A stretch of DNA of 64,000 nt, taken from NCBI GenBank assembly GCA_023246055.1, contig JAHFJD010000001.1, positions 2,781 through 66,780 on the forward strand, read 5' to 3'. Source of the stretch: Candidatus Doudnabacteria bacterium. GTDB taxonomy: Bacteria > Patescibacteriota > Doudnabacteria > UBA920 > 2-01-FULL-46-14. The stretch's first letter is position 1. Each line of letters begins with the position of its first letter. Below the pieces are notes generated by a model. That model made no database searches, was not told where the DNA came from, and saw only the letters and a list, made by a program, of their open reading frames with translations. The position numbers and the translations under genes were made by a program. Positions 5,756 to 58,833 of the stretch are shown here, one piece after another.

Positions 5756-6208
5756 GTGGAAGAAAAATACGGGACGATAAAACAGATCATCGCAGAGATT
5801 CTGCAACATATGGGGATCGAGGCAGAAATTGAAAACCGGTTTCTAGAAGAAACCGTGATTTTTAATCTCCGAACCCCGGATTCAGGCATGCTCATCGGCC
5901 AATATGGGGCAAACCTCGCCGCATTCCAGTATCTCGCCAGGCTCTTGGCGTTTCGGCGTTTGGGCGAGTCTGTGCGCTTTGTGGTAGATGTCGAAGATTA
6001 TAAAAAAACTCGCGAAGAATTTTTGCGAGAGTTGGCGAGGCAGGCCGCTGATCGCGTGCGAGAGACCAGACAAAGCTTACTCTTGAAGCCGATGTCAGCC
6101 TATGAACGCCGAATGGTGCACGCGGAGATCGGCAACATGCCAGATGTGATGAGCGAGTCAGCTGGCATTGATCCGGAACGAAGAGTGTTAATCAAATTGA
6201 AAATCTAG
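5756..6208 (+). CDS. jag: Jag/KhpB R3H-domain RNA-binding protein
   Basis: 150 aa, KH/R3H-like C-terminus (YERRMVHAEIG), canonical position after yidC. Confidence 0.75.
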   Translation: MEEKYGTIKQIIAEILQHMGIEAEIENRFLEETVIFNLRTPDSGMLIGQYGANLAAFQYLARLLAFRRLGESVRFVVDVEDYKKTREEFLRELARQAADRVRETRQSLLLKPMSAYERRMVHAEIGNMPDVMSESAGIDPERRVLIKLKI

Positions 6209-7654
6209 AAACGGCAAGACGTAGACGAGCCAGAAGAGGATAGAGAGATCGTTTTTGAAATAGGAGACGTCGACCAGACTGTGGAGCACGATCATTGCCA
6301 TGCCGGCTCCGGCAGCGAGGGCTAACCCCCTCTTGATCTCCCCCTCACGAGGGGGAGAAATTTGTTTTTGCCCCTCCTCGTGAGGGGGGGAAGGGGAGGT
6401 AACAGTTTTGTATATTTTTTTGTAAAATAGAATCAATAGCCCAATGATACTTAGCAATCCTAAAAGCCCGGTCTCCACCCAAAAGGTCAGAAAAAAATTG
6501 TGCGGATAGTTTTGAATGACCCGATCCGGGCCGAGGGGGTAGTTTTTGTAGGCTTCACGAAAACCCGTTAGCCCTACCCCAGTTATGGGATGATGCTTCA
6601 ATATATCCACTGCCGCAGTCCACAGCACATAACGATTTTCTTTGGATGGGTCAGCATGAGTGAGATTTAGAAGTTTGGCGCGGGAGACGGGGATGGCAAA
6701 GACAAGAGTGATAATAACCAATAGCGATAACAATAACTTTGGGGTGCGCGACCTCTCCTGGCCTTCGGCCACCCTCCCCTCGCCAGGGGAGGGGATAAGG
6801 AATGCGACCCCAACAAGGGTCGCCGCCAAGGCCAGCCAGCCCGCGCGGGAAAATGTTAAATAAAATGCAACCAGTCCAAATCCGAGCGCAGTCCACCTCA
6901 ATTTGTTTTTGGGCAGCATGATTAGCATGGTGAGAACGGGCCCTAAGAGCAAGGCCAATCCATTGGGGTGGTTTAGTAATGACACGATTCTGCGCTCCGC
7001 AAAACTGACGTCCCACCAGGAGGGCGGGAGATTTTGCAAGGTCAGATATTGATAAACTCCAAACGCAGATAAATACAAAACCAGGACGGTCATGCTTTGG
7101 AATAATTTTTTCAATTTTTCTTGCGAATCAATAGTAAGGCGCAGCAAGAAATAAAAGAGTATCGGTTCAAAAAAATAAGCTTTGAAAATACCAGCGGCTT
7201 TGAGCGTGTCTGGGGCGATGAATACAGAAATGACGGCCGCAAGGAGGAAGAGAATAATAAAAATATATTGGGCCACCCCCCACCTCACCTCCTCGCCTCG
7301 CCTTCGCTCGGACGAAGCGCCCCCCACAAGGGGGGAGGAATCCCTGGTTTTTATTCCTTCCCCTTGTGGGAGAGGGTTAGGCCTGCCCGCCATTGGCCTT
7401 GAGCCTTCAGGCGATTGGCAGGCGGGGAGGGGCGAAAGGATTGAAAGTATCCGCGGGTTTCGAATTAAAGCAATAACTTCCACTGCCGCCAATAGCAAAA
7501 TCATCCCTTCGAGAAATGTCGCGGGGACTCCGAATACTTGAAAACGAATTTGATAACTCGGCAGTCCCAGGACAATGAGATAAATCCCCCACTCTCGCCG
7601 GTAAAGACTTGCCACCAAAAAACCAATTAGACTGATTATTATCCAAGGGTTCAT
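6188..7654 (-). CDS. O-antigen ligase/Wzy_C family polytopic membrane protein carrying three in-frame GC-rich repeat insertions
   Basis: 488 aa; HPHNFFLTFWVETGLLGLL Wzy_C-like motif; insertions encode SPSPPHEEGQKQISPPREGE, IPSPGEGRVAEGQERS and a ~55-aa G/P/R-rich segment. Confidence 0.6.
   Translation of the reverse strand: MNPWIIISLIGFLVASLYRREWGIYLIVLGLPSYQIRFQVFGVPATFLEGMILLLAAVEVIALIRNPRILSILSPLPACQSPEGSRPMAGRPNPLPQGEGIKTRDSSPLVGGASSERRRGEEVRWGVAQYIFIILFLLAAVISVFIAPDTLKAAGIFKAYFFEPILFYFLLRLTIDSQEKLKKLFQSMTVLVLYLSAFGVYQYLTLQNLPPSWWDVSFAERRIVSLLNHPNGLALLLGPVLTMLIMLPKNKLRWTALGFGLVAFYLTFSRAGWLALAATLVGVAFLIPSPGEGRVAEGQERSRTPKLLLSLLVIITLVFAIPVSRAKLLNLTHADPSKENRYVLWTAAVDILKHHPITGVGLTGFREAYKNYPLGPDRVIQNYPHNFFLTFWVETGLLGLLSIIGLLILFYKKIYKTVTSPSPPHEEGQKQISPPREGEIKRGLALAAGAGMAMIVLHSLVDVSYFKNDLSILFWLVYVLPFLDFQFD
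6337..6390. repeat. GC-rich hairpin repeats (family 1) TCTCCCCCTCACGAGGGGGAGA plus second hairpin CCCCTCCTCGTGAGGGGGGG, inside CDS
   Basis: Perfect inverted repeats directly visible; same motif recurs at >=14 sites. Confidence 0.8.
7255..7440. repeat. Composite GC-rich insertion (family-1-related hairpins plus CCTGCCCGCC/GGCAGGCGGG motif) inside Wzy-like CDS
   Basis: ~185 bp of >65 % GC inside an AT-rich gene; contains CCCCCCACAAGGGGGGAGG hairpin and GCCTGCCCGCC...GGCAGGCGGGG. Confidence 0.6.
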
Positions 7655-7694: not shown

Positions 7695-10514
7695 TTATGG
7701 AATTTTGACTGTTACTTGATTGCTTTTTTCATTGCCGATTCGCGCAAAAAGGCTATAGCTGCCTGGATTTGGGCGTGCTGTTTCGGGCCAGTTCAGGGTG
7801 TAGACAAAGATATCTCCGAAGCGCCGTTTGGAGATATTGCCGTCAATCTCCGTCTCGTTTCCAGCCGCAGAGCGCCGTAGAAATTCCACGGCATCAGTGC
7901 TCGCATCGAGAGAGGCTTCGATAGAAAAATTAAGAGGGAAATTTAAAGCAAAATTGTCTTGCGGCTCCAGAACGAGCAGTTTTTGACCGAGCGCAAAATG
8001 GAGATTCCGTATTTTTTGGGCCACACGGCCGGAAGCGGTTAGCACTTGCACCGTCAATTGATGCGCCCCGTCCACGTGGCTCGTTTGCCCCGTGTACTCG
8101 TACGGTACAGCCGCATCAGCGCCGATCACCCGGCCATCTAAAAAGAACCTTGCTTCTCTGATTTCGTCCGTTGATTTAACCTTGGCGCTGACCTTCCAGG
8201 AGTTTTCAGTGACCTTGTCTGGGGCGCTAATTTCGATTTGAATCGTGCTGTCAGTTTTGGGTTCCACTGGTCCATCTCCGCTGGCCGGATAAACATATCC
8301 ATTTGCCAGGGCCCAGAATCGGACAGGATCTTCCCAGCGCGGATCATCCGGTTTTTCCGAATGCAGCACAGTATAAACTTGAGTGGCGTTGTTTGCTGTC
8401 ACAGGGGCATGCACATCATCGTATTCTTCAGGCACATTGAAGCTTGCAAATATTTCAGTCTTGGTCTCCGGGCTGTATGTTGTTGGTAATTTGCCGGAGA
8501 GGCTGTCCACTGCGATTTCAGTAATCCCCGGCGGCCTCACGAACTCTTCTGCGGGTTTCCCCCCAAGGGCCTTTAGCATGAATCCTTGCCAGATGCTGGC
8601 CGCGACGAGTGATCCAGACGCTCCGCCAGTCATTGGCTCGTTGTTGTTATTGCCCATCCATACACCGGTTACCAGGCTCGGCGTATATCCCACGGTCCAG
8701 GCATCGCGGTATTCCTGGGTGGTGCCGGTTTTCGCCGCGACCGGGCGGCCGGGAAGCTGCAGGCGATTATTTTGCCCAAAAATATAAACTCGGGACGGGT
8801 TGTCTGACAACACATTGGTAATTTGGTAGGCAATTTGCGGGTCAAGTACTTCTTGCCCCCTTGATTCCTTATTTTCTTCCAACACGTTGCCTGATTTATC
8901 TTCAATTTTTAGGATGGCAGTAGTATTGTGCCTTACCCCTCCTGTGGCGAAGACTCCATAGGCAGCAGTATGTTCGAGGAGCTTGACCTCGGCTCCGCCG
9001 AGTACTAGGGCTGGGCCAAACCGCGACCGATCTTTGAGGGTAGTGATCCCCAGCGATTCCGCAGTTTCAATCGCATCGTCAATACCCGTGAGAATCAGGG
9101 TTTTGACAGCCGGGATGTTTAAAGATCCTTGCAAGGCTTTGCGGATAGACACCGGACCATGTTCTTTGCCATCATAGTTCGCCGGGATATACTCTTTACC
9201 GCCAAATTCACCAAAATCGGTGGTTACATCCATGATCAAGGTCGCCGGGCTCATGCCTTTTTTGAAGGCCGTGGCATAGACATAAGGCTTGAATGATGAA
9301 CCAGGCTGCCGCGGACGAAGCGCGACATTCACAGCGCCATCATGGGCTTTATCAAAATAGTCTCGGGAACCGACCATGGCCAGGATTTGGCCGGTGCGCG
9401 GGTCCATGGCCACGAGAGACGCATTGGTGGCATTGTATTTTTTTTCTGATGAAGCCACTTGGTCCGTGACTACCTGTTCGGCGATTTTTTGTAAATCTAA
9501 ATCCAATGACGTAGTGACGCGCAAGCCGTCGCGCCGCAAGCTGATATCACCGTATTTTTTCGCCAGTAAATCCTGGACATATAGCACAAAATGCGGGGCC
9601 AGAATTCCCCGACCAATGTTTCGGAATTCTACCTTTATACCCTGGGCTTCGTCGCGCTGTTTTTTTGTGATATATCCTTGATCAGCCATCACTGCGAGCA
9701 CAGTATCAGCGCGGGCATCGAGGGCTTCACGATTTGGGCCAAAGGGCGAATAATATGACGGAGCTTGGGGCATAGCAGCGAGATAAGCTGCTTCAATCAA
9801 GGTCAGATCACGGGCCGATTTTCCAAAAAAAGTCTGGGCCGCGGCCTCGACGCCATACGCGTTACCCCCATAGGGGATTTCATTCAGGTATAGCTGGAGG
9901 ATTTCATCTTTGGAATAGCGGCGTTCAATCTCCAGAGACAGGGCGATCTCCTTGATCTTGCGGCCCCAGGTTTTTTCGCGCGTCAACACAGCGTTTCTCA
10001 CAAACTGCTGGGTGATGGTTGACCCCCCCTGACTTTTACTGCCCTTGAGAATGTTTATGATTATTGCTCGGAGAATGCCGGTGATACTGATCCCCCCATG
10101 CGTATAGAAATTTTTATCTTCGATAGCAATGGTCGCATCTTTGACATACTTTGGTACTTGGTCCAGCGTGACAAGCGTGCGTTTTTCTTCATCATAGAGC
10201 TCGTAAAGAAGTTTCCCGTTGCGATCGAGGATTTTTGTTGATTCGACCGGCTCCCTTTTCGCCAGTTGCCCGGGATCAGGAATAGTAAAAGCATAGTAGG
10301 CAAAGGTTAGACCAAACAAGATGAAAAAAACAATGCCAGCAAAGACTCCAGCGACGAGTAATTTTTTAAACACTCCCTTGATCCGCCAAAACCGTCGCAA
10401 GAGGCGTCCCACATACACAAAAAACTTGCGAGCCAGAGAGGCTGAAGAGCGCTCTCGTGTCCGCAAGAATGGCTTGTCTCCAAATTTTTTCCAGCCGCGG
10501 CTGTAGTTAGACAT
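7695..10514 (-). CDS. Class A penicillin-binding protein (glycosyltransferase + transpeptidase) with long C-terminal extension
   Basis: 939 aa; GT51 motifs (EDKNFYTHGG, RQPGSSFKP SxxK), transpeptidase domain, N-terminal TM. Confidence 0.9.
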   Translation of the reverse strand: MSNYSRGWKKFGDKPFLRTRERSSASLARKFFVYVGRLLRRFWRIKGVFKKLLVAGVFAGIVFFILFGLTFAYYAFTIPDPGQLAKREPVESTKILDRNGKLLYELYDEEKRTLVTLDQVPKYVKDATIAIEDKNFYTHGGISITGILRAIIINILKGSKSQGGSTITQQFVRNAVLTREKTWGRKIKEIALSLEIERRYSKDEILQLYLNEIPYGGNAYGVEAAAQTFFGKSARDLTLIEAAYLAAMPQAPSYYSPFGPNREALDARADTVLAVMADQGYITKKQRDEAQGIKVEFRNIGRGILAPHFVLYVQDLLAKKYGDISLRRDGLRVTTSLDLDLQKIAEQVVTDQVASSEKKYNATNASLVAMDPRTGQILAMVGSRDYFDKAHDGAVNVALRPRQPGSSFKPYVYATAFKKGMSPATLIMDVTTDFGEFGGKEYIPANYDGKEHGPVSIRKALQGSLNIPAVKTLILTGIDDAIETAESLGITTLKDRSRFGPALVLGGAEVKLLEHTAAYGVFATGGVRHNTTAILKIEDKSGNVLEENKESRGQEVLDPQIAYQITNVLSDNPSRVYIFGQNNRLQLPGRPVAAKTGTTQEYRDAWTVGYTPSLVTGVWMGNNNNEPMTGGASGSLVAASIWQGFMLKALGGKPAEEFVRPPGITEIAVDSLSGKLPTTYSPETKTEIFASFNVPEEYDDVHAPVTANNATQVYTVLHSEKPDDPRWEDPVRFWALANGYVYPASGDGPVEPKTDSTIQIEISAPDKVTENSWKVSAKVKSTDEIREARFFLDGRVIGADAAVPYEYTGQTSHVDGAHQLTVQVLTASGRVAQKIRNLHFALGQKLLVLEPQDNFALNFPLNFSIEASLDASTDAVEFLRRSAAGNETEIDGNISKRRFGDIFVYTLNWPETARPNPGSYSLFARIGNEKSNQVTVKIP

Positions 10515-11991: not shown

Positions 11992-12312
11992 TTATTTTTT
12001 CAGGGCGGATTTTAGTTTGGGCAGATTTTTTTTTACAACATTCCAGACACGCTTATAGTTTATCTTGAAGTACTCGTGAATTATCCGATTTCTTAAACCG
12101 ACTATATCGTGCCACGGAATGTCAGGATATCGATTGCGGAATTTCGCGGACAAGTGATTTGCCGCCTCGCCAATTATCTCTAATTCCCGGACCACACCGG
12201 CACGACGAAGTTTGTCTCGTCTAAAATTTTCGCAACTCATCCTCAACACAAACGTTTCAGCTTCCGCGATAGCCTCTAAGATATGTTTTTTATATAAAGT
12301 ATCTTTATCCAT
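11992..12312 (-). CDS. HepT-like toxin (DUF86, RX4HXY motif)
   Basis: 106 aa; RNRIIHEY motif; overlaps cognate nucleotidyltransferase gene. Confidence 0.7.
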   Translation of the reverse strand: MDKDTLYKKHILEAIAEAETFVLRMSCENFRRDKLRRAGVVRELEIIGEAANHLSAKFRNRYPDIPWHDIVGLRNRIIHEYFKINYKRVWNVVKKNLPKLKSALKK

Positions 12313-12781
12313 AAAGTATCTTTAAATCTTTGACCGCCTGCGGTTCGACAAGCTCATCCAGGTCCCCTTCCTCAGCCAAATCAACCTTCAAGTTTAGTGC
12401 GTCTTGGAGTATATTCTGTAGTCGGATAACATCTAAAAGGCTTTTATCGTTTTGTTTATGAAACCGAACTAGCACATCCAAATCACTATCGGGCCGCGCT
12501 TCGCCTCTGGCATAGGAGCCAAAAATACCGGCGAACTCAACGTCATTTTTTTTGAGAATCGGTACAGCTATTTTTTTGATTTGCTCCAAAGTCAAAACTG
12601 GCTTCGGATGGCTTGCAAACGGCGCCTCTGAAGCTTGATCAATGAGTTCTGGATTGGTTTTGGCAGCAAACCGCAAAAGTGCGCGAACGAATTCGCTGCG
12701 ATTGGCAAAACCATAGTTTTTTGTCGTTTGATCAACAAACTTGGCTTGTTCAGCAGTTAAGCTGATATTTACAGTCTTCAT
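12305..12781 (-). CDS. MntA-like nucleotidyltransferase antitoxin with N-terminal ribbon-helix-helix domain
   Basis: GSYARGEARPDSDLDVLV NTase motif; N-terminal NRSEFVRALL RHH-like segment; start placed at second Met (MKTVNISL) because upstream Met lies in GC hairpin repeat. Confidence 0.65.
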   Translation of the reverse strand: MKTVNISLTAEQAKFVDQTTKNYGFANRSEFVRALLRFAAKTNPELIDQASEAPFASHPKPVLTLEQIKKIAVPILKKNDVEFAGIFGSYARGEARPDSDLDVLVRFHKQNDKSLLDVIRLQNILQDALNLKVDLAEEGDLDELVEPQAVKDLKILYG

Positions 12782-12825
12782 AGATCCATTATAGCAAACT
12801 TTGGCAAGGTTTGTCAACCCCCTCT

Positions 12826-13323
12826 TCATCTCCCCCTTGATAAGGGGGAGAAAGAGTGAGGGTGATTGGCTCCGCAGATGGCCAGGGCTAGGGCGTCGGC
12901 CGCGTCATCGGGCTTGGGGATGGATTTCAGGTTCAGAAGAGTTTTAACCATGTACTGAACCTGTTTTTTGTCGGCCTTGCCGTAATTGGTTAAAGAGTTT
13001 TTAACTTGCAGGGGGGTGAATTCTGTGATGGGGATTTTATTTTGTCTCGCGCACAGCAACACCACACCGCGTGCCTGTGCGACCGCGATTGCAGTTTTTA
13101 CATTGTTATAAAAAAATACAGATTCCACCGCGACCTTGCCTGGCTTGTGTTTGCGGATTAACGAATTTAAATCCTTGTAAATTTCTTCGAGTCGTTCTGG
13201 TAGTGAATTATTTTTCGAAGTTTTCAGGCAGCCATATTCAATCGCGCGCAATTTGCCTTTTGCGGATTCAATGACTGCGTAACCAGTTGTGGCAGTGCCG
13301 GGATCAATACCGAGTATTATCAT
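12826..13323 (-). CDS. ruvC: Holliday junction resolvase RuvC
   Basis: 165 aa, MIILGIDPGTATTGYAV N-terminus, RuvC fold residues. Confidence 0.9.
   Translation of the reverse strand: MIILGIDPGTATTGYAVIESAKGKLRAIEYGCLKTSKNNSLPERLEEIYKDLNSLIRKHKPGKVAVESVFFYNNVKTAIAVAQARGVVLLCARQNKIPITEFTPLQVKNSLTNYGKADKKQVQYMVKTLLNLKSIPKPDDAADALALAICGANHPHSFSPLSRGR
12829..12851. repeat. GC-rich hairpin repeat (family 1) TCTCCCCCTTGATAAGGGGGAGA at ruvC 3' end
   Basis: Perfect 9-bp stem seen directly. Confidence 0.8.
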
Positions 13324-16655: not shown

Positions 16656-16928
16656 TTATGAAATCGAGATGCGTAGTTCAGCATCGAGAGCTTCAGCTAT
16701 CCGATGAAGAAACTTAATTGAAGGGTTGTAGCCCCCTCTTTCCAGCCGGGAGATAACAGGTTGTTTTGTGCCAAGCTTAGCCGCTAGCTGTTTTTGGGTC
16801 AGACCCTCCTTGAGGCGTTTTTTTATGATCATTCTGATCAAATCAAATTCCGGCCCCAGTTCATCGTAGGCTTTTTTGAATTCTTTATTTTTTAGTAACT
16901 GCACTCTAAAAGCTTTGTAAGTTCTCAT
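16656..16928 (-). CDS. XRE-family HTH antitoxin (HigA-like)
   Basis: 90 aa; HTH LTQKQLAAKLGTKQPVISRLERG; paired with upstream gp49/HigB-like toxin. Confidence 0.7.
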   Translation of the reverse strand: MRTYKAFRVQLLKNKEFKKAYDELGPEFDLIRMIIKKRLKEGLTQKQLAAKLGTKQPVISRLERGGYNPSIKFLHRIAEALDAELRISIS

Positions 16929-16954
16929 AAAGATAATATAACTTATAAGTTATA

Positions 16955-17260
16955 TTATGTCAAGTGTTTCATCCTGGAAAATGCGATATCAAGCTCCTTT
17001 CGAGGAGTTTGTTGAGATTGCTTTATAAATCCGTGTAATAAATAAACTGCATTGTTGTGAAAGCAATAGAAAATTCTAATCTCTTGTTTCCCCCTGACGC
17101 GCAGTTCAAAGACGCCTTTATTTATGTGTCTACTATGAGGCATGCTGAGCTGATAGCCAAATTCTTCGATCAAGCTAATAGTTCTATCTACTTTGGCGGC
17201 AGCTGGCATTCCGAGAGAACGGATAAATTTTTCTACACTTGCATCGATAAACAGCTGCAT
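16955..17260 (-). CDS. HigB-like toxin (phage Gp49/DUF891 family)
   Basis: 101 aa; ...GKQEIRIFYCFHNNAVYLLHGFIKQSQQTP typical of RelE/HigB-superfamily Gp49-like proteins. Confidence 0.7.
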   Translation of the reverse strand: MQLFIDASVEKFIRSLGMPAAAKVDRTISLIEEFGYQLSMPHSRHINKGVFELRVRGKQEIRIFYCFHNNAVYLLHGFIKQSQQTPRKELDIAFSRMKHLT

Positions 17261-24799: not shown

Positions 24800-26068
24800 A
24801 TGCCCGAACAGACCATGGAGGAGCTCCTCCTCCAGTCAAAAATCAAAATCCTCGCTGCCGGCGATGTGGTCAAAGGCCGCATTTTGAGCGTGGGCAAAAA
24901 CGAAGTCTACGTGGACGTGGACGGCATCGGCATTGGCGTGGTGCGCGGCCGCGAGCTTTATGATGACGAGACGATTCTTTCTTCCCTAAAAGCCAATGAC
25001 GAGGTATTTGCCTCGGTGATCGAGGTAGAAAACAAAGAGGGCAACATTGAGCTATCTTTCCGCAAAGCCGGTCTCGAACGAGTTTGGCAAACTTTGCGGG
25101 AGAAGATGGAGAGCCGCGAGGTGATCCGAACCAAGATTCTGGAAGCGAACAAGGGCGGTCTCATGGTGCGCATCAACAACGTGGTTGGTTTTTTGCCTGT
25201 ATCGCAGCTCGCCCCCATGCATTATCCGCGGGTGGAGGATGGCGATAAAAACAAGATTTTGTCAGTCTTGCGGGGTTACGTGGGACAGGATTTTGATGTT
25301 CGAGTGATTACCGCCGAGCAGGACGGGGAGAAATTGATTGTTTCGGAACGAGCAGTAATCGAAAGCGAGTTGTTGCAAAAAATCGGCAAACTCTCAATCG
25401 GTGACATAGTAGAAGGTGAAATCACAGGAGTCGTGGATTTTGGGGCATTCGTGAAATTTGGGGATGGCCTCGAGGGGCTCGTGCATATCTCCGAGCTCGC
25501 TTGGCAACGGATTGAAAATCCCAAGGACATAGTGAAGGTCGGGCAAAAGGCCAAGGCCCAGATTATTGCCATTGATAATGATCGCATTAGTTTGTCCCTG
25601 AAGCGGCTCCTTAAGGATCCGTGGGAAGACGCAGTGAAAAAATATAAAATTGGGCAGATGGTCAAAGGCCGAGTTTTGAAACTCGCGACCTTTGGAGCGT
25701 TCGTTGAGCTGGATCCGGAAATCCATGGCCTCGCGCATCTTGGGGAGTTGTCTGTGGAAAAAATTGCCGATGTCAGTGCAGTCATCAAAGAAGGCGAAGA
25801 GCGAGAGTTTCGCATCATTTCTATTGAGCCAGCAGATCACCGATTAGGGTTATCTTTGAAACCGCCCGCCCGGCAATCGCCTGAAGGCTCAAGCCAGATG
25901 GCGGACGGGCCAAAAACAGAGGCACGGACTGAGGCCAAAACGGAAGAAACAAAAACTCCAACATCCCCTGAAAGCGGGGTCGGAGCGTCGACCGAGAGTG
26001 GAATCGCAGTTCCGACCGAAAGCGTCGGCGAACAACAAGCTCCCGAAGCAGCGAAAACCCCGGCCTAA
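24800..26068 (+). CDS. rpsA: 30S ribosomal protein S1 (four S1 domains) with low-complexity C-terminal tail
   Basis: 422 aa; repeated S1 domains; tail PKTEARTEAKTEETKTPTSPESG. Confidence 0.85.
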   Translation: MPEQTMEELLLQSKIKILAAGDVVKGRILSVGKNEVYVDVDGIGIGVVRGRELYDDETILSSLKANDEVFASVIEVENKEGNIELSFRKAGLERVWQTLREKMESREVIRTKILEANKGGLMVRINNVVGFLPVSQLAPMHYPRVEDGDKNKILSVLRGYVGQDFDVRVITAEQDGEKLIVSERAVIESELLQKIGKLSIGDIVEGEITGVVDFGAFVKFGDGLEGLVHISELAWQRIENPKDIVKVGQKAKAQIIAIDNDRISLSLKRLLKDPWEDAVKKYKIGQMVKGRVLKLATFGAFVELDPEIHGLAHLGELSVEKIADVSAVIKEGEEREFRIISIEPADHRLGLSLKPPARQSPEGSSQMADGPKTEARTEAKTEETKTPTSPESGVGASTESGIAVPTESVGEQQAPEAAKTPA

Positions 26069-26117
26069 TCCGGGGTTTTAAATCCACGAAAATAAAGATA
26101 TAATTACCGAGTCAAAT

Positions 26118-26170
26118 CGGTCTGGTGCCCGAGCAGTTAGGGAGCGGTCTGCCTGCCCGCCACGGCCTGA
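26118..26170 (+). other. Partial duplicate of tRNA-Cys 5' half (38 nt identical to positions 1-38 of the intact gene)
   Basis: GGTCTGGTGCCCGAGCAGTTAGGGAGCGGTCTGC repeated verbatim at 26171. Confidence 0.6.
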
Positions 26171-26241
26171 GGTCTGGTGCCCGAGCAGTTAGGGAGCGGT
26201 CTGCAAAACCGCGTAGACGGGTGCAACTCCCGTCCAGACCT
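26171..26241 (+). tRNA. tRNA-Cys (anticodon GCA)
   Basis: 71 nt; acceptor GGTCTGG/CCAGACC, anticodon stem GCGGT/ACCGC, loop CTGCAAA; unusual T-loop TGCAACT. Confidence 0.7.
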
Positions 26242-26300
26242 TGGGCGATGGCAGGCGGGCAAAACCGCCATTCACGGGTGCAACTCCCGTCGTGGCCTCC
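26242..26300 (+). other. Degenerate tRNA-Cys-like 3' fragment with encoded CCA
   Basis: Shares ACGGGTGCAACTCCCGTC T-arm with the intact gene; ends CGTGGCCTCCA; lacks D-arm. Confidence 0.45.
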
Positions 26301-26345
26301 AAGGTATTATTCCCCTCTTAGGCTAAGAGGGGTTAGGGGAGTTAA

Positions 26346-26732
26346 GAATTTGTAGTATATTATAACAATCCCCAAACGAAAACGAACCGCCACGAGCTTC
26401 GGCGAAATCAAACTGAAGTCGAGAAGAGGTTATGGCAAGTTCTGCGAAATAAACAGCTTGAAGGATTATTTTTTTTCCGGCAATATAATGTTGGTCAGTA
26501 CATATTGAATTTTTATTGCCCAAAGCTGAAGCTTGCGATTGAGCTAGACGGCGGACAGCACGCTGAAGAAATAAATAAAACATACGATGATCAGCGATCC
26601 GATTTTCTGCGCGAAAGGACAATAAAAGCCTTGAGATTTTGGAATAATGAAGTAATGGAAACAATGGATGGAGTTATTGATAAGATACGAATGAAAATTA
26701 AAATAACCCCTCCTAACCTCCCCTTAGTTTAA
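26346..26732 (+). CDS. DUF559 (Vsr/PD-(D/E)xK endonuclease-like) domain protein lacking a canonical start codon
   Basis: In-frame translation ...RLWQVLRNKQLEGLFFFRQYNVGQYILNFYCPKLKLAIELDGGQH...LRFWNNEV matches DUF559; only TTG at 26505 available as start; flanked by GC hairpin repeats at 26316-26340 and 26709-26740. Confidence 0.55.
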   Translation, partial: EFVVYYNNPQTKTNRHELRRNQTEVEKRLWQVLRNKQLEGLFFFRQYNVGQYILNFYCPKLKLAIELDGGQHAEEINKTYDDQRSDFLRERTIKALRFWNNEVMETMDGVIDKIRMKIKITPPNLPLV

Positions 26733-26751
26733 GGGGAGGAACAAAGCCCAT

Positions 26752-26835
26752 GCCCTCGTGGCGGAACTGGTTTACGCAGCGGACTTAAAATCCGCGGCTC
26801 GAAAGAGCTTGTGGGTTCGAATCCCACCGAGGGCA
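26752..26835 (+). tRNA. tRNA-Leu (anticodon UAA)
   Basis: 84 nt class II tRNA; acceptor GCCCTCG/CGAGGGC; anticodon loop CTTAAAA; long variable arm; T-loop TTCGAAT. Confidence 0.85.
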
Positions 26836-26911
26836 TTTAGTTGAGGGTTCCATGTCCGCCGTAGCTGTAGCGAAGGTCGGAGAGCCCCTCCCCAGGCATA
26901 GCAAATTAAAT

Positions 26912-27352
26912 ATGATCCTTGCCCATTCTATAATCGGCTTGCTACCGGTTGATAACCATCATTTTTCCTGGTATTGGTTCATCGGCTCTATTATTCCAGA
27001 CATAGACCATCTCTTTGTTCTGTATCAACACAAAATTTTTTCCCGGGACAAAATTGTTGACGTGATGCGGTTTGAAAAGAAATATAATCTTCATTTCAAA
27101 ACAAAATATTTACATTCCGTTTTCGGAGCAATAGTCATGACAGCCCCGGTCTTGCTAATGAGCAGCACAGGAGCCGTATACTTTTTTACAGCTTATATTC
27201 TCGCCTTGCTTCTGGATTGGCCGGATATAGACGAGAAACAATATCTTTTTCCGTTCAAAAAGAAATTCCGAGGGTTTCTGCCGATTTTTTCTGTCCCCGA
27301 AAGAGTCATCACCCTGGTGTTATTGGTTCTACTGGTTTACTTTTATTTGTAA
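26912..27352 (+). CDS. Membrane-bound metal-dependent hydrolase (YdjM/DUF457-like)
   Basis: MILAHSIIGLLP...WFIGSIIPDIDHL motifs; start set at second Met to avoid overlap with tRNA-Leu. Confidence 0.5.
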   Translation: MILAHSIIGLLPVDNHHFSWYWFIGSIIPDIDHLFVLYQHKIFSRDKIVDVMRFEKKYNLHFKTKYLHSVFGAIVMTAPVLLMSSTGAVYFFTAYILALLLDWPDIDEKQYLFPFKKKFRGFLPIFSVPERVITLVLLVLLVYFYL

Positions 27353-27444
27353 GACACTGAAATAAAAAGGAGTCCTAGATACTAAGGCTCCCGACTGTGA
27401 TTCGTGGTTTGTTATTGTCGGTACTCCTTATCTTTCAGGCAATT

Positions 27445-28599
27445 TTACCTGACGAAGTTTATCAGTTTTTTTCCGAGTTTAAAGAGTTTATAATAATTTT
27501 TGTCCAAAATCAAATCCCAGGTCCCGGTGTAATGTTTCTCGAGCCCGGTCTCCCCCGCCCGCAACGCCTGCGGCGTAGCGCTGGCGGGCAGGCCTACTGT
27601 GACATACCGCGATTTGAAACGGGTGATGCCTGACCAGGAGTGGGATTCTGACGCGTCCGGCGGCGCGATGCCCCACATGTCATAATATTTTTTGCCAGCA
27701 GCTTTGGCCGCGCGAATGGCTTCCCAGAGGACCAGACTTGGGACATTAGCATTGCGCATCTCTGCCGAAGACGCAGCGTAAAGATAAGTGCCGCTGTCGC
27801 CGAATAGCATGATAATCGTCGCGGCCAGAGTTTTACCTTCGTATTCGCCAGTGAGGAGTATGGCGCGGGGAGAGAACTCACCCTTACCCTCTCTTTGTAA
27901 AAGAGAGGGAGTCTCCCCCCCTTTAATTAAAGAGGGGGTCGGGGGGAGTTCGGCATACATAAAATGTTCTCTAAACTTTTCAAACCTTTTCCTGGGCCAG
28001 ACAGTGATACCATCCCGTTTCGAGGTTTCCGCTATCAACTCCAGGAATTTTTCGAACCCTGCACTATCTCCTGTTTTATCCTCGACGCGCACGCCTTTTT
28101 TCATGGCCAGTCTGATGTTGTAGCGGGATTTTTCATGCATTTTCGACATTAGCTGGTCTTCGGGTTTTGTCAGATCAACAAGCACTGTGTCTTCCGGCTC
28201 CATTTGTTTCTGCAGAATTTCTGGTTTTTGAAATTTGAAATTTGAAATTTGAAATTTATTTTGATAAGGTGGGCTTATCCTGACCAGCACAGCATTTTCA
28301 ACAGCCGCTATCGTTTTTAATTCCGCAACAAGTGTTTCCCAAACAGCCTTATCAAAATTACCCACCGGCCCCTTTGCCACCTCCAAATAGGTTTTACCGA
28401 GATATAGAGAGCGCACGACGATTTGGGCCGCAGCGAGCCATTTGCCATCATCCCCCATCACCACAACACGGTGGATTTTGTTTCCCAGTGCGGCCTGAAA
28501 CTCACCCCACTGCCAAGATTGCAGAAATGACGAGGGTGAAGAATTTTCTATAACGAATTTATTCCATTGATCTTTGTCTGAGGCGATTATAATTTCCAT
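27445..28599 (-). CDS. FemAB-family peptidoglycan bridge-forming aminoacyltransferase
   Basis: 384 aa; FemAB-like N- and C-terminal acyltransferase halves; contains GC-hairpin insertion (SPPTPSLIKGGETPSLLQREGKG) and a 7-bp tandem repeat. Confidence 0.75.
   Translation of the reverse strand: MEIIIASDKDQWNKFVIENSSPSSFLQSWQWGEFQAALGNKIHRVVVMGDDGKWLAAAQIVVRSLYLGKTYLEVAKGPVGNFDKAVWETLVAELKTIAAVENAVLVRISPPYQNKFQISNFKFQKPEILQKQMEPEDTVLVDLTKPEDQLMSKMHEKSRYNIRLAMKKGVRVEDKTGDSAGFEKFLELIAETSKRDGITVWPRKRFEKFREHFMYAELPPTPSLIKGGETPSLLQREGKGEFSPRAILLTGEYEGKTLAATIIMLFGDSGTYLYAASSAEMRNANVPSLVLWEAIRAAKAAGKKYYDMWGIAPPDASESHSWSGITRFKSRYVTVGLPASATPQALRAGETGLEKHYTGTWDLILDKNYYKLFKLGKKLINFVR
28227..28257. repeat. 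Heptanucleotide tandem repeat (GAAATTT)x4.4 inside FemAB CDS
   Basis: tttgaaatttgaaatttgaaatttgaaattt; encodes KFQISNFKFQK. Confidence 0.8.
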
Positions 28600-29859: not shown

Positions 29860-29927
29860 GACCCACTGAGGGATTCGAACCCCCGACTCCCGCCGTGTAA
29901 AGGAAGAACTCCCCGCCTGCCAAAGCC
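29860..29927 (-). other. tRNA 3'-half-like fragment (T-arm GGGGGTTCGAATCCCTC + acceptor strand) without matching 5' acceptor
   Basis: Minus strand ...GGCGGGAGTCGGGGGTTCGAATCCCTCAGTGGGTCA; no complementary 5' strand found. Confidence 0.35.
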
Positions 29928-29930
29928 TGG

Positions 29931-30004
29931 TGGCCATTGCTGGGTTCGAACCAGCGACCTTTCGGATGTAAACCGAATGCTCTAACCAGCTGAGCTAAAT
30001 GGCC
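29931..30004 (-). tRNA. tRNA-Val (anticodon UAC), CCA encoded
   Basis: GGCCATTTAGCTCAGCTGGTTAGAGCATTCGGTTTACATCCGAAAGGTCGCTGGTTCGAACCCAGCAATGGCCACCA. Confidence 0.85.
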
Positions 30005-30040
30005 AATGGCGGGCAGGTACCACTGAGTTAAGTGCGCGAA

Positions 30041-30205: not shown

Positions 30206-31690
30206 ATGACTTCTAAAAAACTTTTTTTTCTTCTGGTTTTTCTGCTTCCCATCAGCACTGGGAAAGTGTTTTTTTCGGAGCAGAGTTTTTTTTATGGTTA
30301 CCATATTTTTTATCATAGTTTTTGGGTATTCTTGACAGATATTGTATTTTGTGGTTTGATGTTGGCTTGGTTATGGGAAACCTTGACCCCCACTTCATCT
30401 CCCCCTCATGAAGGGGAGAAAATAGAAGGAGTCCCACACCAAATCACCTCAGCTTTCCTAAAAGACAGAGTTTATCAGGGATTGTTGTTTTTTTGGCTTA
30501 TTTTAGCGATTTCAACAATTCTTTCACGTGAAATGTTGCTGTCTTGGTATGGATTGGCTAGGTTTACTGAATATTTTTTCGTCTTCATCTATATCAGGGA
30601 AAATTTTCACATTTCACGTGAAATGAAGTCTTTTTTTTGGCTTATTTTAGCGATTTCTCTACTTGAAACTGGTCTTGGTATAGCCCAATACGTAAATCAA
30701 AGTTCCCTGGGTTTGAAATATCTTGGAGAATCACTTCTAAAACCAGGCATGCCAGGCGTAGCAGAATTTATTTCTCACGGAATTGGGAGCTGGCAAAACA
30801 TTTCACATGAAATGTTGGTTATGAGAGCTTACGGAACATTGCCTCACCCAAATATTTTGGGAGTTTTTCTGTTTACTGGACTGCTTGCCAATATTTGGCT
30901 TATTTATGGCACTTTGAAAGGGTTTCGATCATGGGAAATCTCTTTATTTCCAGCCCTGATCCTGGTTTCCACAGGAATGGTGTTAACTTTTTCACGCGCA
31001 GTTTGGATAGTTATTGCCCTGGTTTTGCTGAGTTTACTTGTTATGCTCCGCATCCGCAAATATCGGGTTTTTGAGACAATGCGCAGCGGGCGAAGAATGG
31101 CAGAACAGCAGGGTATTTATCTGCCCAAACATATCGCAGCCCTTATTCTGGCTTTGCTTGTGGCTTTGGGTTTGAATTTTTTTCTGTTTGGCGAGCAAAT
31201 TAAGGATCGAATAGTGGGGCGAGGTGTGGCAGCTATCGCAGAACAGGAAAGTTTTGTGGATCGCCAGCATTTCAACTCCATTTCACGTGAAATGATCAAA
31301 ACCCATCCACTGCTCGGCGTTGGGCTGCGAAATTTCGTAGCAAGAATGGATGAGTTTAACAGGCCTGCCCGCCATGCTTCGCAAGGCGATGCGGGCGGGG
31401 GAGAGCGCTTATTCCCTCAACAGCACCAGCCAGTGCACAATATTTATTTCCTGGTAGCTGCGGAAACTGGACTTGCTGGTCTCGCGGCATTGTTGTTTCT
31501 ACTCTATAATATTGTGCGACACGCAATCCAAAAGATCAGAGCCGGGGATAGGGGAGAGCGGACCATCTTGCTTGTATTGTTTTTCGGATTTCTATGTTTA
31601 GGGCTCGTTGACCACTATTTTGTTTCGATTCAGCCATCAGCCATGCTGTTTTGGATAGTGGCGGGACTCGTCTCTGCCAAAAGCGTATAA
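30206..31690 (+). CDS. O-antigen ligase/Wzy_C family polytopic membrane protein (paralogue of 6188-7654) with repeat insertions
   Basis: 494 aa; HNIYFLVAAETGLAGLAALLF Wzy_C motif; SSPPHEGEKIEG from GC hairpin; four copies of TTTCACGTGAAATG. Confidence 0.6.
   Translation: MTSKKLFFLLVFLLPISTGKVFFSEQSFFYGYHIFYHSFWVFLTDIVFCGLMLAWLWETLTPTSSPPHEGEKIEGVPHQITSAFLKDRVYQGLLFFWLILAISTILSREMLLSWYGLARFTEYFFVFIYIRENFHISREMKSFFWLILAISLLETGLGIAQYVNQSSLGLKYLGESLLKPGMPGVAEFISHGIGSWQNISHEMLVMRAYGTLPHPNILGVFLFTGLLANIWLIYGTLKGFRSWEISLFPALILVSTGMVLTFSRAVWIVIALVLLSLLVMLRIRKYRVFETMRSGRRMAEQQGIYLPKHIAALILALLVALGLNFFLFGEQIKDRIVGRGVAAIAEQESFVDRQHFNSISREMIKTHPLLGVGLRNFVARMDEFNRPARHASQGDAGGGERLFPQQHQPVHNIYFLVAAETGLAGLAALLFLLYNIVRHAIQKIRAGDRGERTILLVLFFGFLCLGLVDHYFVSIQPSAMLFWIVAGLVSAKSV
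30398..30419. repeat. GC-rich hairpin repeat (family 1) TCTCCCCCTCATGAAGGGGAGA inside CDS
   Basis: Seen directly. Confidence 0.8.
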
Positions 31691-33853: not shown

Positions 33854-34009
33854 TGTTTCGAAACTATATGTTATGGTTAAAGTATACCACATTCAAGAAA
33901 TCATGCAATAAGAAGGGCCTGTAGCCGAGTTGCTTAATCTGTCATTGCGAGCCTCGCCGTTTCGGCCGGGAACCCCTACCGCAGCAATGCGCCCCATTAG
34001 TCCATTTGG

Positions 34010-34080
34010 TGGACCTAGCGAGAATCGAACTCGCGTCCCGGCAATGCGAATGCCGTGTCTTACCACTGGACCATAGGCCC
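34010..34080 (-). tRNA. tRNA-Ala (anticodon CGC), G3:U70 present, CCA encoded
   Basis: GGGCCTATGGTCCAGTGGTAAGACACGGCATTCGCATTGCCGGGACGCGAGTTCGATTCTCGCTAGGTCCA(CCA). Confidence 0.8.
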
Positions 34081-34112
34081 AAATGGAATCGACTAAGGGG
34101 TAAAATGCCCCG

Positions 34113-54588: not shown

Positions 54589-56598
54589 ATGGCAAACTTG
54601 GCCATAAAACTCAAAAATCTTCCTCAAGCCCCCGGGGTGTATCTGTTCAAAAACAACCGCGGCGAGGTTTTGTACGTTGGTAAAGCTAAAAATCTGAAAA
54701 ATCGCGTCAGGTCATACTTTCAGAATGGCAGAGATTTCGAAGCGCGACTCACGGTCATGAAGCAAAACATTGCGGATCTTGATTACACAGTGGTGTCCTC
54801 GGAAATCGAGAGCCTGATGCTCGAAAATAATCTCATCAAGCAATATCAGCCACGATTCAATGTGCTCATGCGAGATGATAAAAATTATCAGTTTATCAAG
54901 CTCGATTATTCTTTTGAAATCCCACAGATTTACACAGTGCGTCAGGTTCCCCTCCTCGTGAGGAGGGGTCAGGGGAGGTTAACCCCCTCCCCGCCCGCCT
55001 CGCAAGCGAGAGCGTTGCGGGCAGGTTCCTCTCCCCCTCACCTGCCCGACTTCGTTTGGGCGAAGTCCAGGCGGGCGGGCGAGGGGGAGAAACTTTCAAG
55101 GTATTTCGGGCCTTATACCTCCAGCCTGGCAGTCAAACAAACTTTGCACCTGTTGAAAAGCATTTTCCATCTCTGCCGCAACAAAAAGATCATTACCAAA
55201 CCCTGTTTCGCCTATCAACTCGGCCGTTGCAGTGGGGTGTGTGTTGGCAAGGTCTCATTACCTGAGTATCTTGAGACTTTTAAGCAAGTCGAAGGTTTTC
55301 TCAAGCATCGGCAAACCGAGATGATGAAAATTCTGCGCGGGGAAATGACCACTGCCGCCACGCGCCACAAATTTGAGAGGGCAGCCATGATCCGGGATAC
55401 GATTCGGTCACTAGAATATATGTGGCAAAAGCAAAAAATCGTGACAGCGAGAAATGAAAACCACGATTATCTCGGGTTGTTCAAACTGGCAACACAAGCG
55501 GTGGTGTGTTTGTTTGTGGTGCGGGGAGGGAGACTCATCCATACTGAACATTTTGAACTGGTGCATGACAATTCTTCATCACCGGAGATTATGGAGCGAT
55601 TTATCACCCAGTATTATGAACAAACCAGCGATATTCCTCAGGAGCTTATCCTCTCTGAAGAATTACCCCGCGTCCCACTCCTGGAAAAATTTCTCACTCG
55701 GCTCACAGGTCAGCGGATTACATTGATTGTTCCGCACCGCGGCAAAAAATCTGGATTGTTAAAACTTGCTGCGGAAAATGCCAGACTCTATCACGAGCGG
55801 CAAATGCCGGATTTTCAAAAAGAAAAACCCAAGCAAACACTCCATGCTTTATCGAGGTTTCTTGAACTTCCAAAAATCCCGATGCGCATTGAAGGTTATG
55901 ACATTTCCAACATCCAAGGAATCAATCCAGTCGGATCGATGGTAGTGTTTACTGCTGGCGTGCCGGACAAAAGCCAATATAGAAAATTTAAAATCAGACT
56001 CCCAGAAACCCCCAATGATTTTGCTATGATGCGCGAGATGCTGGAGCGGAGATTTCGTCACCTCCCCCTCATGAGGGGGAGGATGGGTGGGGGTCGCGGA
56101 GCAAATACACCCACAACCTTCCCTCCCCCTCCTCACGAGGAGGGGGACAATACCTCTTGGCTTCTCCCCGACCTCATCATTATCGACGGCGGCAAAGGGC
56201 AGCTAAATGCTGCTGTTTCCATACTGAAACACAATGATCTGAAAATTCCTGTGATAGCGCTTGCGAAACGACTCGAAGAAATTTTTTTGCCGGGGCGAAA
56301 GAATCCCCTGGTGCTTCCCCCAGGCAACCGGGCGTTATTTCTCCTTCAGCGTATTCGGGATGAGGCTCATCGTTTTGCTGTGACATTTTTCCGGAGCCGT
56401 CACCGGCGCGCTCAAATTTATTCTCGCCTCGAGGATATTTTTGGGGTTGGACCAGTAACTCGAAAAAAATTGATCAAAAAATTCGGCAGCGCTATAGCGG
56501 TCAGACGCGCTTCTCTTGACGCTCTTACGGCAGAGATCGGTCCGCGACTTGCAAAAAATATCAAGGAGCAACTGCCCCCATATCAAGCGAAGCCCTGA
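54589..56598 (+). CDS. uvrC: Excinuclease ABC subunit C carrying two in-frame GC-rich repeat insertions
   Basis: 669 aa; GIY-YIG N-terminus (GVYLFKNNRGEVLYVGKAKNLKNR), UvrC Endo-V/RNaseH-like and HhH C-terminus; insertions at 54940-55095 and 56060-56160 encode P/G/E-rich segments. Confidence 0.9.
   Translation: MANLAIKLKNLPQAPGVYLFKNNRGEVLYVGKAKNLKNRVRSYFQNGRDFEARLTVMKQNIADLDYTVVSSEIESLMLENNLIKQYQPRFNVLMRDDKNYQFIKLDYSFEIPQIYTVRQVPLLVRRGQGRLTPSPPASQARALRAGSSPPHLPDFVWAKSRRAGEGEKLSRYFGPYTSSLAVKQTLHLLKSIFHLCRNKKIITKPCFAYQLGRCSGVCVGKVSLPEYLETFKQVEGFLKHRQTEMMKILRGEMTTAATRHKFERAAMIRDTIRSLEYMWQKQKIVTARNENHDYLGLFKLATQAVVCLFVVRGGRLIHTEHFELVHDNSSSPEIMERFITQYYEQTSDIPQELILSEELPRVPLLEKFLTRLTGQRITLIVPHRGKKSGLLKLAAENARLYHERQMPDFQKEKPKQTLHALSRFLELPKIPMRIEGYDISNIQGINPVGSMVVFTAGVPDKSQYRKFKIRLPETPNDFAMMREMLERRFRHLPLMRGRMGGGRGANTPTTFPPPPHEEGDNTSWLLPDLIIIDGGKGQLNAAVSILKHNDLKIPVIALAKRLEEIFLPGRKNPLVLPPGNRALFLLQRIRDEAHRFAVTFFRSRHRRAQIYSRLEDIFGVGPVTRKKLIKKFGSAIAVRRASLDALTAEIGPRLAKNIKEQLPPYQAKP
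54940..55095. repeat. Long GC-rich composite hairpin insertion (family 1 + CCCGCCCGCC/GGCGGGCGGG arms) inside uvrC
   Basis: ttcccctcctcgtgaggaggggtcaggggagg...ccccgcccgcctcgcaagcgagagcgttgcgggcagg...caggcgggcgggcgagggggagaaac. Confidence 0.7.
56061..56148. repeat. Two adjacent GC-rich hairpin repeats (family 1) inside uvrC: CCTCCCCCTCATGAGGGGGAGG and TCCCCCTCCTCACGAGGAGGGGGA
   Basis: Seen directly; encode HLPLMRGRMGGGRGANTPTTFPPPPHEEGD. Confidence 0.8.
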
Positions 56599-58715: not shown

Positions 58716-58833
58716 AAGGGCGCGTGGCGGAACTGGCCCGCCCAAATTTGCAAAGCAAATTTCAGTCGGGCAGGCAGATTTGCCCCGCATAGCTGGTGCC
58801 TGTATGGCGGAACTGGTATACGCGTACGTTCAC
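58716..58833 (+). other. Two tandem degenerate copies of the tRNA-Leu(CAG) 5' portion (pseudo-tRNA remnants)
   Basis: 58716-58800: GGGCGCGTGGCGGAACTGGCCCGCC... with Leu-like D-arm and variable arm but no T-arm; 58800-58833: 28 nt identical to tRNA positions 5-32 (GTATGGCGGAACTGGTATACGCGTACG). Confidence 0.55.

Follow-up and report, generated by a model that had tools for sequence, protein, structure and literature searches.

How does a complete tRNA gene come to lie between the two halves of another gene for the same tRNA? This question is raised by the tRNA-Cys locus of a 64,000-nucleotide stretch of DNA from a Candidatus Doudnabacteria bacterium (contig JAHFJD010000001.1, assembly GCA_023246055.1), which is referred to here as the window. 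At this locus, an intact tRNA-Cys(GCA) gene is flanked by pieces of tRNA-Cys sequence and followed by a DUF559 reading frame and by tRNA-Leu(UAA). A sequence-only reading of the region had described the pieces as partial self-duplications left behind by repeated integration and excision at a tRNA hotspot. The flanking pieces, two complementary arms and the inner tRNA-Cys instead form one nested structure, rather than loose scars. The structure is met again at further tRNAs and among related genomes, which points towards a so far undescribed mode of in-place tRNA gene replacement.

Architecture of the tRNA-Cys locus

tRNA genes were called with ARAGORN and with the Rfam covariance model (RF00005, gathering threshold). 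Both report a complete tRNA-Cys(GCA) at 26170/71-26241/42 (49.3 bits) and a complete tRNA-Leu(UAA) at 26751/52-26835/36 (60.7 bits), and neither calls the pieces that flank tRNA-Cys. These pieces are indeed fragments, as the sequence-only reading had proposed, and more specifically they are the two halves of one interrupted tRNA-Cys gene. The upstream duplicate, which had been given as 38 nt (26118-26155), is real but exact over 34 nt only, with 26119-26152 identical to 26171-26204, and it ends within the anticodon at G34-C35. The tRNA-like 3' module with its encoded CCA was also correctly recognised, although its tRNA-homologous part is confined to 26259-26301. The preceding segment, 26242-26258, is not tRNA-like and is the complement of 26153-26170. 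At the start of the homologous part, GCAAAACCGC is identical to tRNA-Cys in 10/10 positions, and the T arm and acceptor strand are identical in 22/25, followed by CCA; from its start the module extends through an identical T arm and ends with CGTGGCC-T-CCA at 26301.

The inner tRNA-Cys is surrounded by an inverted repeat with 28-nt arms and 79% complementarity. Pairing between leader and trailer was computed for 152 tRNAs, among which the nested loci are outliers; the duplex at tRNA-Cys reaches -40.6 kcal/mol vs a median of -7. In the predicted fold of the 196-nt transcript, the outer anticodon stem forms the base, from which a long stalk rises that carries the complete cloverleaf on top. Excision of 26152-26259 yields ...GCGGTCTG|CAAAACCGC..., with the junction GGTCTG|CAAAACC found in ~45 uninterrupted related loci. 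This clean restoration indicates that 108 nt entered a single tRNA-Cys gene at G34|C35 without duplication or loss of any base. A palindrome whose loop holds a whole tRNA-Cys makes up the entire insert.

For comparison, 80 loci were recovered via the S1 protein encoded just upstream. The tRNA-Cys and tRNA-Leu(UAA) genes normally lie 2-30 nt apart in these loci, and relatives have a TATAAT at a distance from their own tRNA-Cys that is comparable to that in the window. The features of the window are collected in Table 1.

Table 1. Features of the nested tRNA loci, the DUF559 cassette and the family-2 repeat in the window
Feature	Position	Strand	Remarks
Promoter-like site (TTTAAA, 16-nt spacer, TATAAT)	26077-26104	+	14 nt upstream of outer 5' half
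Outer 5' relic, tRNA-Cys positions 1-33/34	26119-26151	+	Same sequence as 5' half of inner gene
Family-2 palindrome, 5' arm (CCTGCCCGCCACGGCCTGA), 19 nt	26152-26170	+	Pairs with 26242-26259, lengthens inner acceptor stem
Inner intact tRNA-Cys(GCA)	26171-26241	+	Perfect cloverleaf, U73, CCA not encoded
Family-2 palindrome, 3' arm (TGGGCGATGGCAGGCGGG), 18 nt	26242-26259	+	Complementary to 5' arm
Outer 3' relic, tRNA-Cys C35 to encoded CCA	26260-26301	+	
Family-1 hairpin (CCCCTCTTAG G CTAAGAGGGG) upstream of DUF559	26312-26332	+	Conserved in L001
DUF559 reading frame (Vsr-like endonuclease fold), full length, start-less	26346-26732	+	Pfam
Family-1 hairpin containing DUF559 stop codon	26717-26739	+	Inverted relative to upstream copy
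tRNA-Leu(UAA), intact	26752-26835	+	ARAGORN and Rfam
3' relic of L001-type tRNA-Leu(UAA) (TTGAGGGTTCC ... CCCTCCCCAGGCA)	26841-26898	+	34-nt hairpin in T loop
Nested tRNA-Val locus	29860-30037	-	Same architecture as tRNA-Cys
Outer tRNA-Val, 5' piece	30037-30018	-	
5' arm of tRNA-Val (CCTGCCCGCCATT)	30017-30005	-	
Inner intact tRNA-Val(UAC)	30004-29928	-	
3' arm of tRNA-Val (GGCTTTGGCAGGCGGG)	29927-29912	-	
Outer tRNA-Val, remainder	29911-29860	-	
Cargo-less family-2 copy in Wzy_C-like open reading frame	7382-7427	+	In frame; closest copy to Cys arms
Cargo-less family-2 copy in FemAB-like gene	27553-27592	-	In frame; 39-nt insertion missing from L001 orthologue
Cargo-less family-2 copy in second Wzy_C-like open reading frame	31364-31401	+	In frame
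Cargo-less family-2 copy	54988-55026	-	

The arms belong to a dispersed palindromic repeat

The two arms of the tRNA-Cys insert together represent one copy of a repeated palindrome, termed family 2, with the termini CCTGCCCGCC...GGCRGGCGGG(G). Short hairpins with the arm sequences CCTGCCCGCC...GGCAGGCGGG but no cargo occur elsewhere in the window, and the termini are also present in the arms of the nested tRNA-Val. With 35 matches observed vs 13 expected, the motif is over-represented. For the copy at 7382, the similarity extends to the inner part of the tRNA-Cys stalk, which indicates that the tRNA occupies the place of the apical loop of that copy.

Family 2 is mobile, since its copy in the FemAB-like gene is missing from the orthologue in the related locus L001. 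Presence/absence polymorphism at orthologous sites is also seen at tRNA-Cys, where the site is filled in the window and in L003 and empty in L001, L002, L004, L005 and ~40 other loci. Copies with the same termini occur in loci of Moranbacteria and Parcubacteria (L069, L076). [quoted passage not shown] No target-site duplication is found at the tRNA-Cys or the tRNA-Val site, and a possible 4-nt repeat, TTCG, is seen only at L031.

The GC-rich palindromes at 7382-7427, 27553-27592, 31364-31401 and 54988-55079 are translated in frame in Wzy_C-like, FemAB-like and UvrC genes, for example as ...LPACQSPEGSRPMAGR..., and at ~55 kb several copies are nested in one another.

Nested loci at further tRNAs and among relatives

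The nested tRNA-Val locus of the window is interrupted in the D loop, between A21 and G22, and its degenerate outer tRNA-Val is of the L025 type. ARAGORN reported this locus as two overlapping tRNA-Val(UAC) genes. A third locus, at 33970-34111, contains tRNA-Ala(CGC) (34007-34080, minus strand) with a complementary leader and trailer (CCCCTTAGTC.../...GACTAATGGGG), and a fragment beginning at the anticodon (CGCATTGC...) lies beyond the trailer. The locus is probably another instance of nesting, at a later stage of decay.

Outside the window, L003 holds a nested tRNA-Cys with the same arms and relics. The same arms also enclose tRNA-Ile in L004, tRNA-Thr in L092, tRNA-Pro in L098, tRNA-Arg in L165 and tRNA-Val(GAC) in L170; L004 contains both an Ile and a Leu case. 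In L030, L031 and L038 the nested architecture is built with other hairpins, and the case in L031 is a tRNA-Val interrupted at the same D-loop site. The relics of the Pro, Arg and Val(GAC) composites have the same anticodon as their inner genes, and the Thr relic lacks the anticodon arm. Wherever the relic can be typed, inner gene and relic are cognate.

Metagenomes were scanned for the two arms at a spacing of 70-100 nt. Most matches are chance matches in GC-rich contigs, and 4 of the 120 are tRNA composites, one metagenome composite having the palindrome in the opposite orientation. The same pattern returned no composites from viral contigs. Hairpins with ~85-nt loops of non-tRNA sequence contain no decayed tRNA detectable with Rfam at E <= 1. 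The loci of the S1 relatives P0015 and P0022 are un-nested. Look-ups of the exact S1, YdjM-like and FemAB proteins of the window returned short contigs only, of which L325 was the one useful.

Two other search strategies were rejected. The intron modes of ARAGORN (-i, -io) mainly produced chimeras of adjacent tRNAs and recovered only the outer tRNA-Pro of L098. Deletion of each inner tRNA together with 0-45 nt per side, followed by renewed ARAGORN calls, was abandoned, as neighbouring genes swamped the result.

Further relics and insertions in tRNA genes were observed among the relatives. In L008 (5278-5450), two tandem tRNA-Cys 3' relics follow the live gene, and each of them has two small hairpins placed precisely at G34|C35. 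A 3' relic lies downstream of live tRNA-Leu in L023 (~5960-6080, minus strand) and another downstream of live tRNA-Val in L024 (~8125-8260, plus strand). The T loops of these two relics share a conserved insert of ~80 nt (AGCCGGAA...GAGGCGGGGTCGCRACCGC...GAGTTGTGACC) that has no match in Rfam. Group I introns (Rfam, 68-72 bits) are present in tRNA-Phe(GAA) of the Doudnabacteria relatives L012 (8581-8827) and L041 (7369-7600).

Degeneracy of the outer copies

Which of the two copies works can be judged from their sequences. The inner genes score as normal tRNAs, and the inner tRNA-Cys folds as a cloverleaf. The outer 3' half including G34 (26259-26301) is identical to the live tRNA-Cys of L002 in 41/43 positions, and it continues into AG(G)TATTATT, a hairpin and the DUF559 cassette, which is the junction that follows the live tRNA-Cys of L001. 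Together, the identity with L002 and the downstream junction of the L001 type identify the outer 3' half as the end of the former resident gene. The outer copies are degenerate. When spliced, the outer tRNA-Cys has adjacent acceptor mismatches, 5-68 and 6-67, and no cloverleaf fold is obtained. The outer tRNA-Val, which is identical to the live gene of L025 in 62/72 positions, has mismatches in the acceptor and anticodon stems. The outer copy of L003 is truncated, and that of L031 contains two more hairpins and a mutated T loop.

Proposed replacement of the resident gene in place

On this evidence, we lean towards the view that the resident tRNA-Cys was replaced in place by a tRNA-bearing family-2 palindrome that inserted between G34 and C35. 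According to this model, a family-2 copy with a complete tRNA-Cys in its apical loop would have entered the resident gene's anticodon loop by insertion at the DNA level, and the halves of the old gene would have stayed on both sides as non-functional relics. The new tRNA-Cys has no promoter of its own and would be read from the resident promoter at 26077-26104. The transcript would contain, in this order, relic, arm, tRNA, arm and relic, probably continuing through DUF559 and tRNA-Leu. In this transcript, the arms are predicted to pair as a helix of ~19 bp stacked on the acceptor stem. The helix may be the stem on which processing by RNase III, RNase P and 3' trimming depends, after which CCA would be added enzymatically.

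Palindrome and tRNA may have moved or arisen as one unit. Only cognate and co-oriented insertions would survive selection, because other insertions into a single-copy tRNA gene would be lethal, and promoter-less cargo that landed elsewhere would be redundant. More tentatively, selection might not be all that is involved, and family 2 could be a cargo-carrying palindrome of the candidate phyla radiation (CPR) that captures whole tRNA genes in its apical loop and inserts them, without target duplication, into single-stranded loop positions of the cognate chromosomal tRNA gene under the guidance of structure or homology. Its arms could additionally act as sites for the exchange of tRNA cassettes, a possibility suggested by the different inner tRNA-Cys genes that the window and L003 hold between the same arms. 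Such a system would amount to a dedicated route for the horizontal turnover of single-copy tRNA genes.

Several observations weigh against replacement by a tRNA-bearing palindrome. The different inner gene of L003 within the same arms and relics requires that cargo was exchanged or that gene conversion took place. The outer tRNA-Cys of the window is chimeric, with a 5' half that is identical to the inner gene (34/34) and a 3' half of another tRNA-Cys class, an outcome not expected of a simple one-step insertion. Different hairpin families reuse the same sites, namely G34|C35 of tRNA-Cys and the D loop of tRNA-Val, which speaks against a one-step model. All tRNA-carrying copies lie inside a tRNA relic (0/8 outside), although a freely moving composite might yield some elsewhere. 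The 56 open reading frames (ORFs) of the window that were scanned for protein families include neither a transposase nor a REP-associated tyrosine transposase (RAYT). Family 2 has no replication-strand bias relative to the nearby origin (3 copies on the plus strand, 4 on the minus strand). Finally, ARAGORN with default settings still accepts the artificially spliced outer copies as tRNA-Cys and tRNA-Val, and decay must therefore be recent or partial.

Competing explanations

The integration scars proposed in the sequence-only reading would imply that recombinases integrated at the anticodon loop, that the arms are half-sites of the attP dyad and that the rest of the element was lost. The breakpoints in the anticodon loop and the GC common to both tRNA-Cys junctions agree with this, and the two arms together (~37 bp) have the size of an att site. 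The same genome also has a large serine recombinase gene abutting tRNA-Leu(CAG), with a 5' relic and an element body beyond. At tRNA-Cys, in contrast, the arms enclose 108 nt with only a tRNA and no element body, no recombinase-family match was found among the ORFs scanned within ~10 kb, and those scanned from ~12 to 36 kb of the window belong to housekeeping or unknown families. Beyond the 2-nt GC, for which chance is plausible, the tRNA-Cys junctions share no core; the Val, Pro, Arg and Thr composites, with the same arms, share no central dinucleotide at their two junctions, so that only tRNA-Cys fits the logic of serine recombinases. Copies of ~40 nt without cargo lie in frame inside proteins, and we know of no integrase that uses the D loop as its target within a tRNA gene. 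Scars of this kind are considered an unlikely explanation, and this part of the earlier interpretation is not upheld. A purely local origin is also improbable. It would involve no imported tRNA but a partial duplication in situ, by slippage or template switching at the palindrome, together with gene conversion. The identity of the outer 5' half with the inner gene is what such an event would leave, and the 5' relic of tRNA-Leu(CAG) has a 26-nt exact block in common with its live gene. The 3' halves argue otherwise, as the outer one is of another class and the inner one is closest to L041. A local origin also leaves the foreign look of the inner genes unexplained. At the window tRNA-Val, L031 and L098, the differences between inner and outer genes are spread over several stems and look compensatory, and where outer copies were compared they match live genes of relatives (window tRNA-Val with L025, L031 with L024). 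Furthermore, the arms belong to a dispersed repeat family.

It would be a surprise if the outer halves were exons of a functional interrupted gene, from which stalk and inner tRNA are cut out before the halves are ligated, so that each transcript yields two tRNA-Cys. The predicted fold does join the outer anticodon stem under the stalk, and the calls of spliced outer copies by ARAGORN are in line with such a gene. The two adjacent acceptor mismatches in the outer tRNA-Cys and the truncated or multiply disrupted outer copies of L003 and L031 are not. The fold has 1x2, 1x1 and 2x2 internal loops and no bulge-helix-bulge, i.e., no two 3-nt bulges separated by 4 bp, and to our knowledge bacteria do not have the endonuclease required for tRNA splicing of the archaeal type. 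No Rfam intron match was obtained for 25500-27500 at E <= 1, while the group I introns of L012 and L041 were detected as positive controls. An assembly artefact caused by the repeated 34-mer can be considered practically negligible. The region is metagenome-assembled, and short-read contigs break at the repeat. The independent assembly L325 (Logan SRR14366766), which itself breaks exactly at the 34-nt repeat, is nevertheless 100% identical to 26204-27627 and thus covers the inner 3' half, arm, relic and DUF559. The same architecture is also found in unrelated assemblies (L003, L098, L165, L170 and others).

The DUF559 cassette between tRNA-Cys and tRNA-Leu

The spacer between tRNA-Cys and tRNA-Leu contains a separate, hairpin-bracketed cassette with a DUF559 gene that has recently lost its start codon. 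The Vsr-like endonuclease ORF recognised in the sequence-only reading matches DUF559 (PF04480) at profile positions 3-108 (106/109) with E = 5.6e-33. NCBIfam names it a DUF559 domain protein with a score under its cut-off, and PDB entry 3hrl is matched with E = 5e-19. The gene is start-less, as had been stated: within 26346-26732, there is no in-frame ATG, GTG or TTG before the TTG at 26505, which is codon 54 in the middle of the domain. The TTG at 26350 is shifted from the frame by one base, and TAG follows it. In the L001 orthologue (67% identity), a Shine-Dalgarno sequence is combined with a TTG start at codon 2. Judging by this comparison, the start was lost through a small indel that put the TTG out of frame. 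The bracketing family-1 hairpins are present on both sides in inverted orientation, but at other positions (Table 1) than those first given (26316-26340 and 26709-26740). Describing the gene as decaying overstates the loss, as the domain is intact and the ratio of nonsynonymous to synonymous substitutions (dN/dS) relative to the L001 orthologue is ~0.14 over both gene halves, in keeping with past purifying selection. This value indicates that DUF559 was functional until recently or starts non-canonically.

The designation of the site as a tRNA hotspot is borne out by the relatives, whose Cys-Leu spacers hold DUF559 ORFs, HNH-type ORFs or further relics. DUF559 itself is found at this site only in the window and in L001. 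In L038, L039, L043 and L046, a Cys-Leu spacer of ~550 nt contains, at the site of DUF559, an ORF beginning MPKKKKW..EDQL..., which in our judgement resembles HNH-type homing endonucleases.

Genomic surroundings

The best relatives of the S1 protein gene that ends at 26068 are from Candidatus Doudnabacteria (CPR/Patescibacteria), with an identity of up to ~86%. The genes recF, dnaN and dnaA, followed by rnpA, yidD and yidC, are located at 0.2-5.7 kb of the window. This gene content indicates that the window is chromosomal and near the replication origin, and not part of an island.

The tRNA-Leu(UAA) 3' relic begins 5 nt past the live tRNA-Leu. The YdjM-like ORF as called (26852-27352) takes its first 20 codons from relic and hairpin, and its next ATG is at 26912. 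The tRNA-Leu(CAG) gene at 58879-58965 has its 5' relic at 58798-58828, and the large serine recombinase ORF (58830-60389, minus strand) runs through the complement of this tRNA. Past the end of the window, the gene list of a longer contig shows an element with tyrosine-integrase-like, Rad52-like, ECF sigma factor and CsgG genes. Small pairs resembling toxin-antitoxin systems are found at 11992-12829 and 16656-17260 (both minus strand), comprising HepT with a nucleotidyltransferase (MNT-like) and a Gp49-like protein with a helix-turn-helix protein.

Significance and comparison with known systems

CPR genomes generally have few or no duplicate tRNA genes. It is therefore a puzzle how tRNA genes can be exchanged without passing through a lethal intermediate. 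This problem would be solved by a cassette that supplies a working copy under the old promoter at the same time as it interrupts the old gene. Such a cassette would also account for the patchy occurrence of tRNA-Cys sequence classes in Doudnabacteria. For annotation, relic halves and nested genes are a source of confusion, as in the two overlapping tRNA-Val calls, and relics extend the calls of neighbouring ORFs. Family 2, which inserts in protein frames and in the loops of tRNA relics, is in this respect the bacterial counterpart to mitochondrial hairpin elements and to Rickettsia palindromic elements, with some copies carrying a gene as cargo. Rickettsia palindromic elements are likewise small palindromic repeats inserted in frame.

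The DUF559 cassette invites comparison with free-standing homing endonuclease genes, such as the seg genes of phage T4, which lie between conserved genes in a tRNA cluster. In both cases, a small ORF with a nuclease fold is present or absent at one intergenic site, here between two tRNAs. DUF559 differs in being bracketed by inverted hairpins and in the lack of a start in this copy.

The literature covers group I introns in tRNAs of Patescibacteria (PMC13011429), integrase-derived tRNA fragments (PMC9897764), archaeal split and permuted tRNAs, and REP/MITE repeats. A full-text literature search returned no description of a palindrome-borne tRNA lying within its cognate gene or of the family-2 repeat. 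The fragments left by integrative elements are similar in that partial tRNA copies lie beside an intact tRNA, the breakpoint is in the anticodon loop and the incoming DNA restores function (PMC9897764). In the nested loci, however, both old halves flank the 108-nt insert without an element body or nearby integrase. The insert brings a whole tRNA, is bounded by the arms of a dispersed palindrome, and D-loop sites are used as well. Disrupted tRNAs of archaea and algae, with bulge-helix-bulge introns or split and permuted genes, also have an anticodon- or D-loop interruption by a long helix and pairing of leader and trailer (PMC3218864, PMC4033280). In contrast, the host here is a bacterium and a bulge-helix-bulge is lacking. 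Moreover, it is the interrupted gene that is degenerate, and the working tRNA is part of the sequence that interrupts it. The group I introns of Patescibacteria are found in the same phylum as insertions in the anticodon loop (PMC13011429), and such introns are also present in tRNA-Phe of L012 and L041, whereas the 108-nt insert has neither a group I fold nor an Rfam match.

The closest parallels to the repeat itself are REP sequences and bacterial interspersed mosaic elements (BIMEs), MITEs, and mitochondrial GC clusters and hairpin elements (PMC3733652, PMC3116915, PMC2800124). With these, family 2 shares the multi-copy imperfect palindrome with conserved termini, the presence/absence polymorphism, the in-frame insertions in protein genes and the insertions in RNA genes. 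It differs in that no target duplication is seen at the two sites for which a comparison with live genes is possible, that no RAYT or transposase was found in the window ORFs scanned, and that the apical loop of some copies holds a complete tRNA gene, these copies lying inside the cognate tRNA gene.

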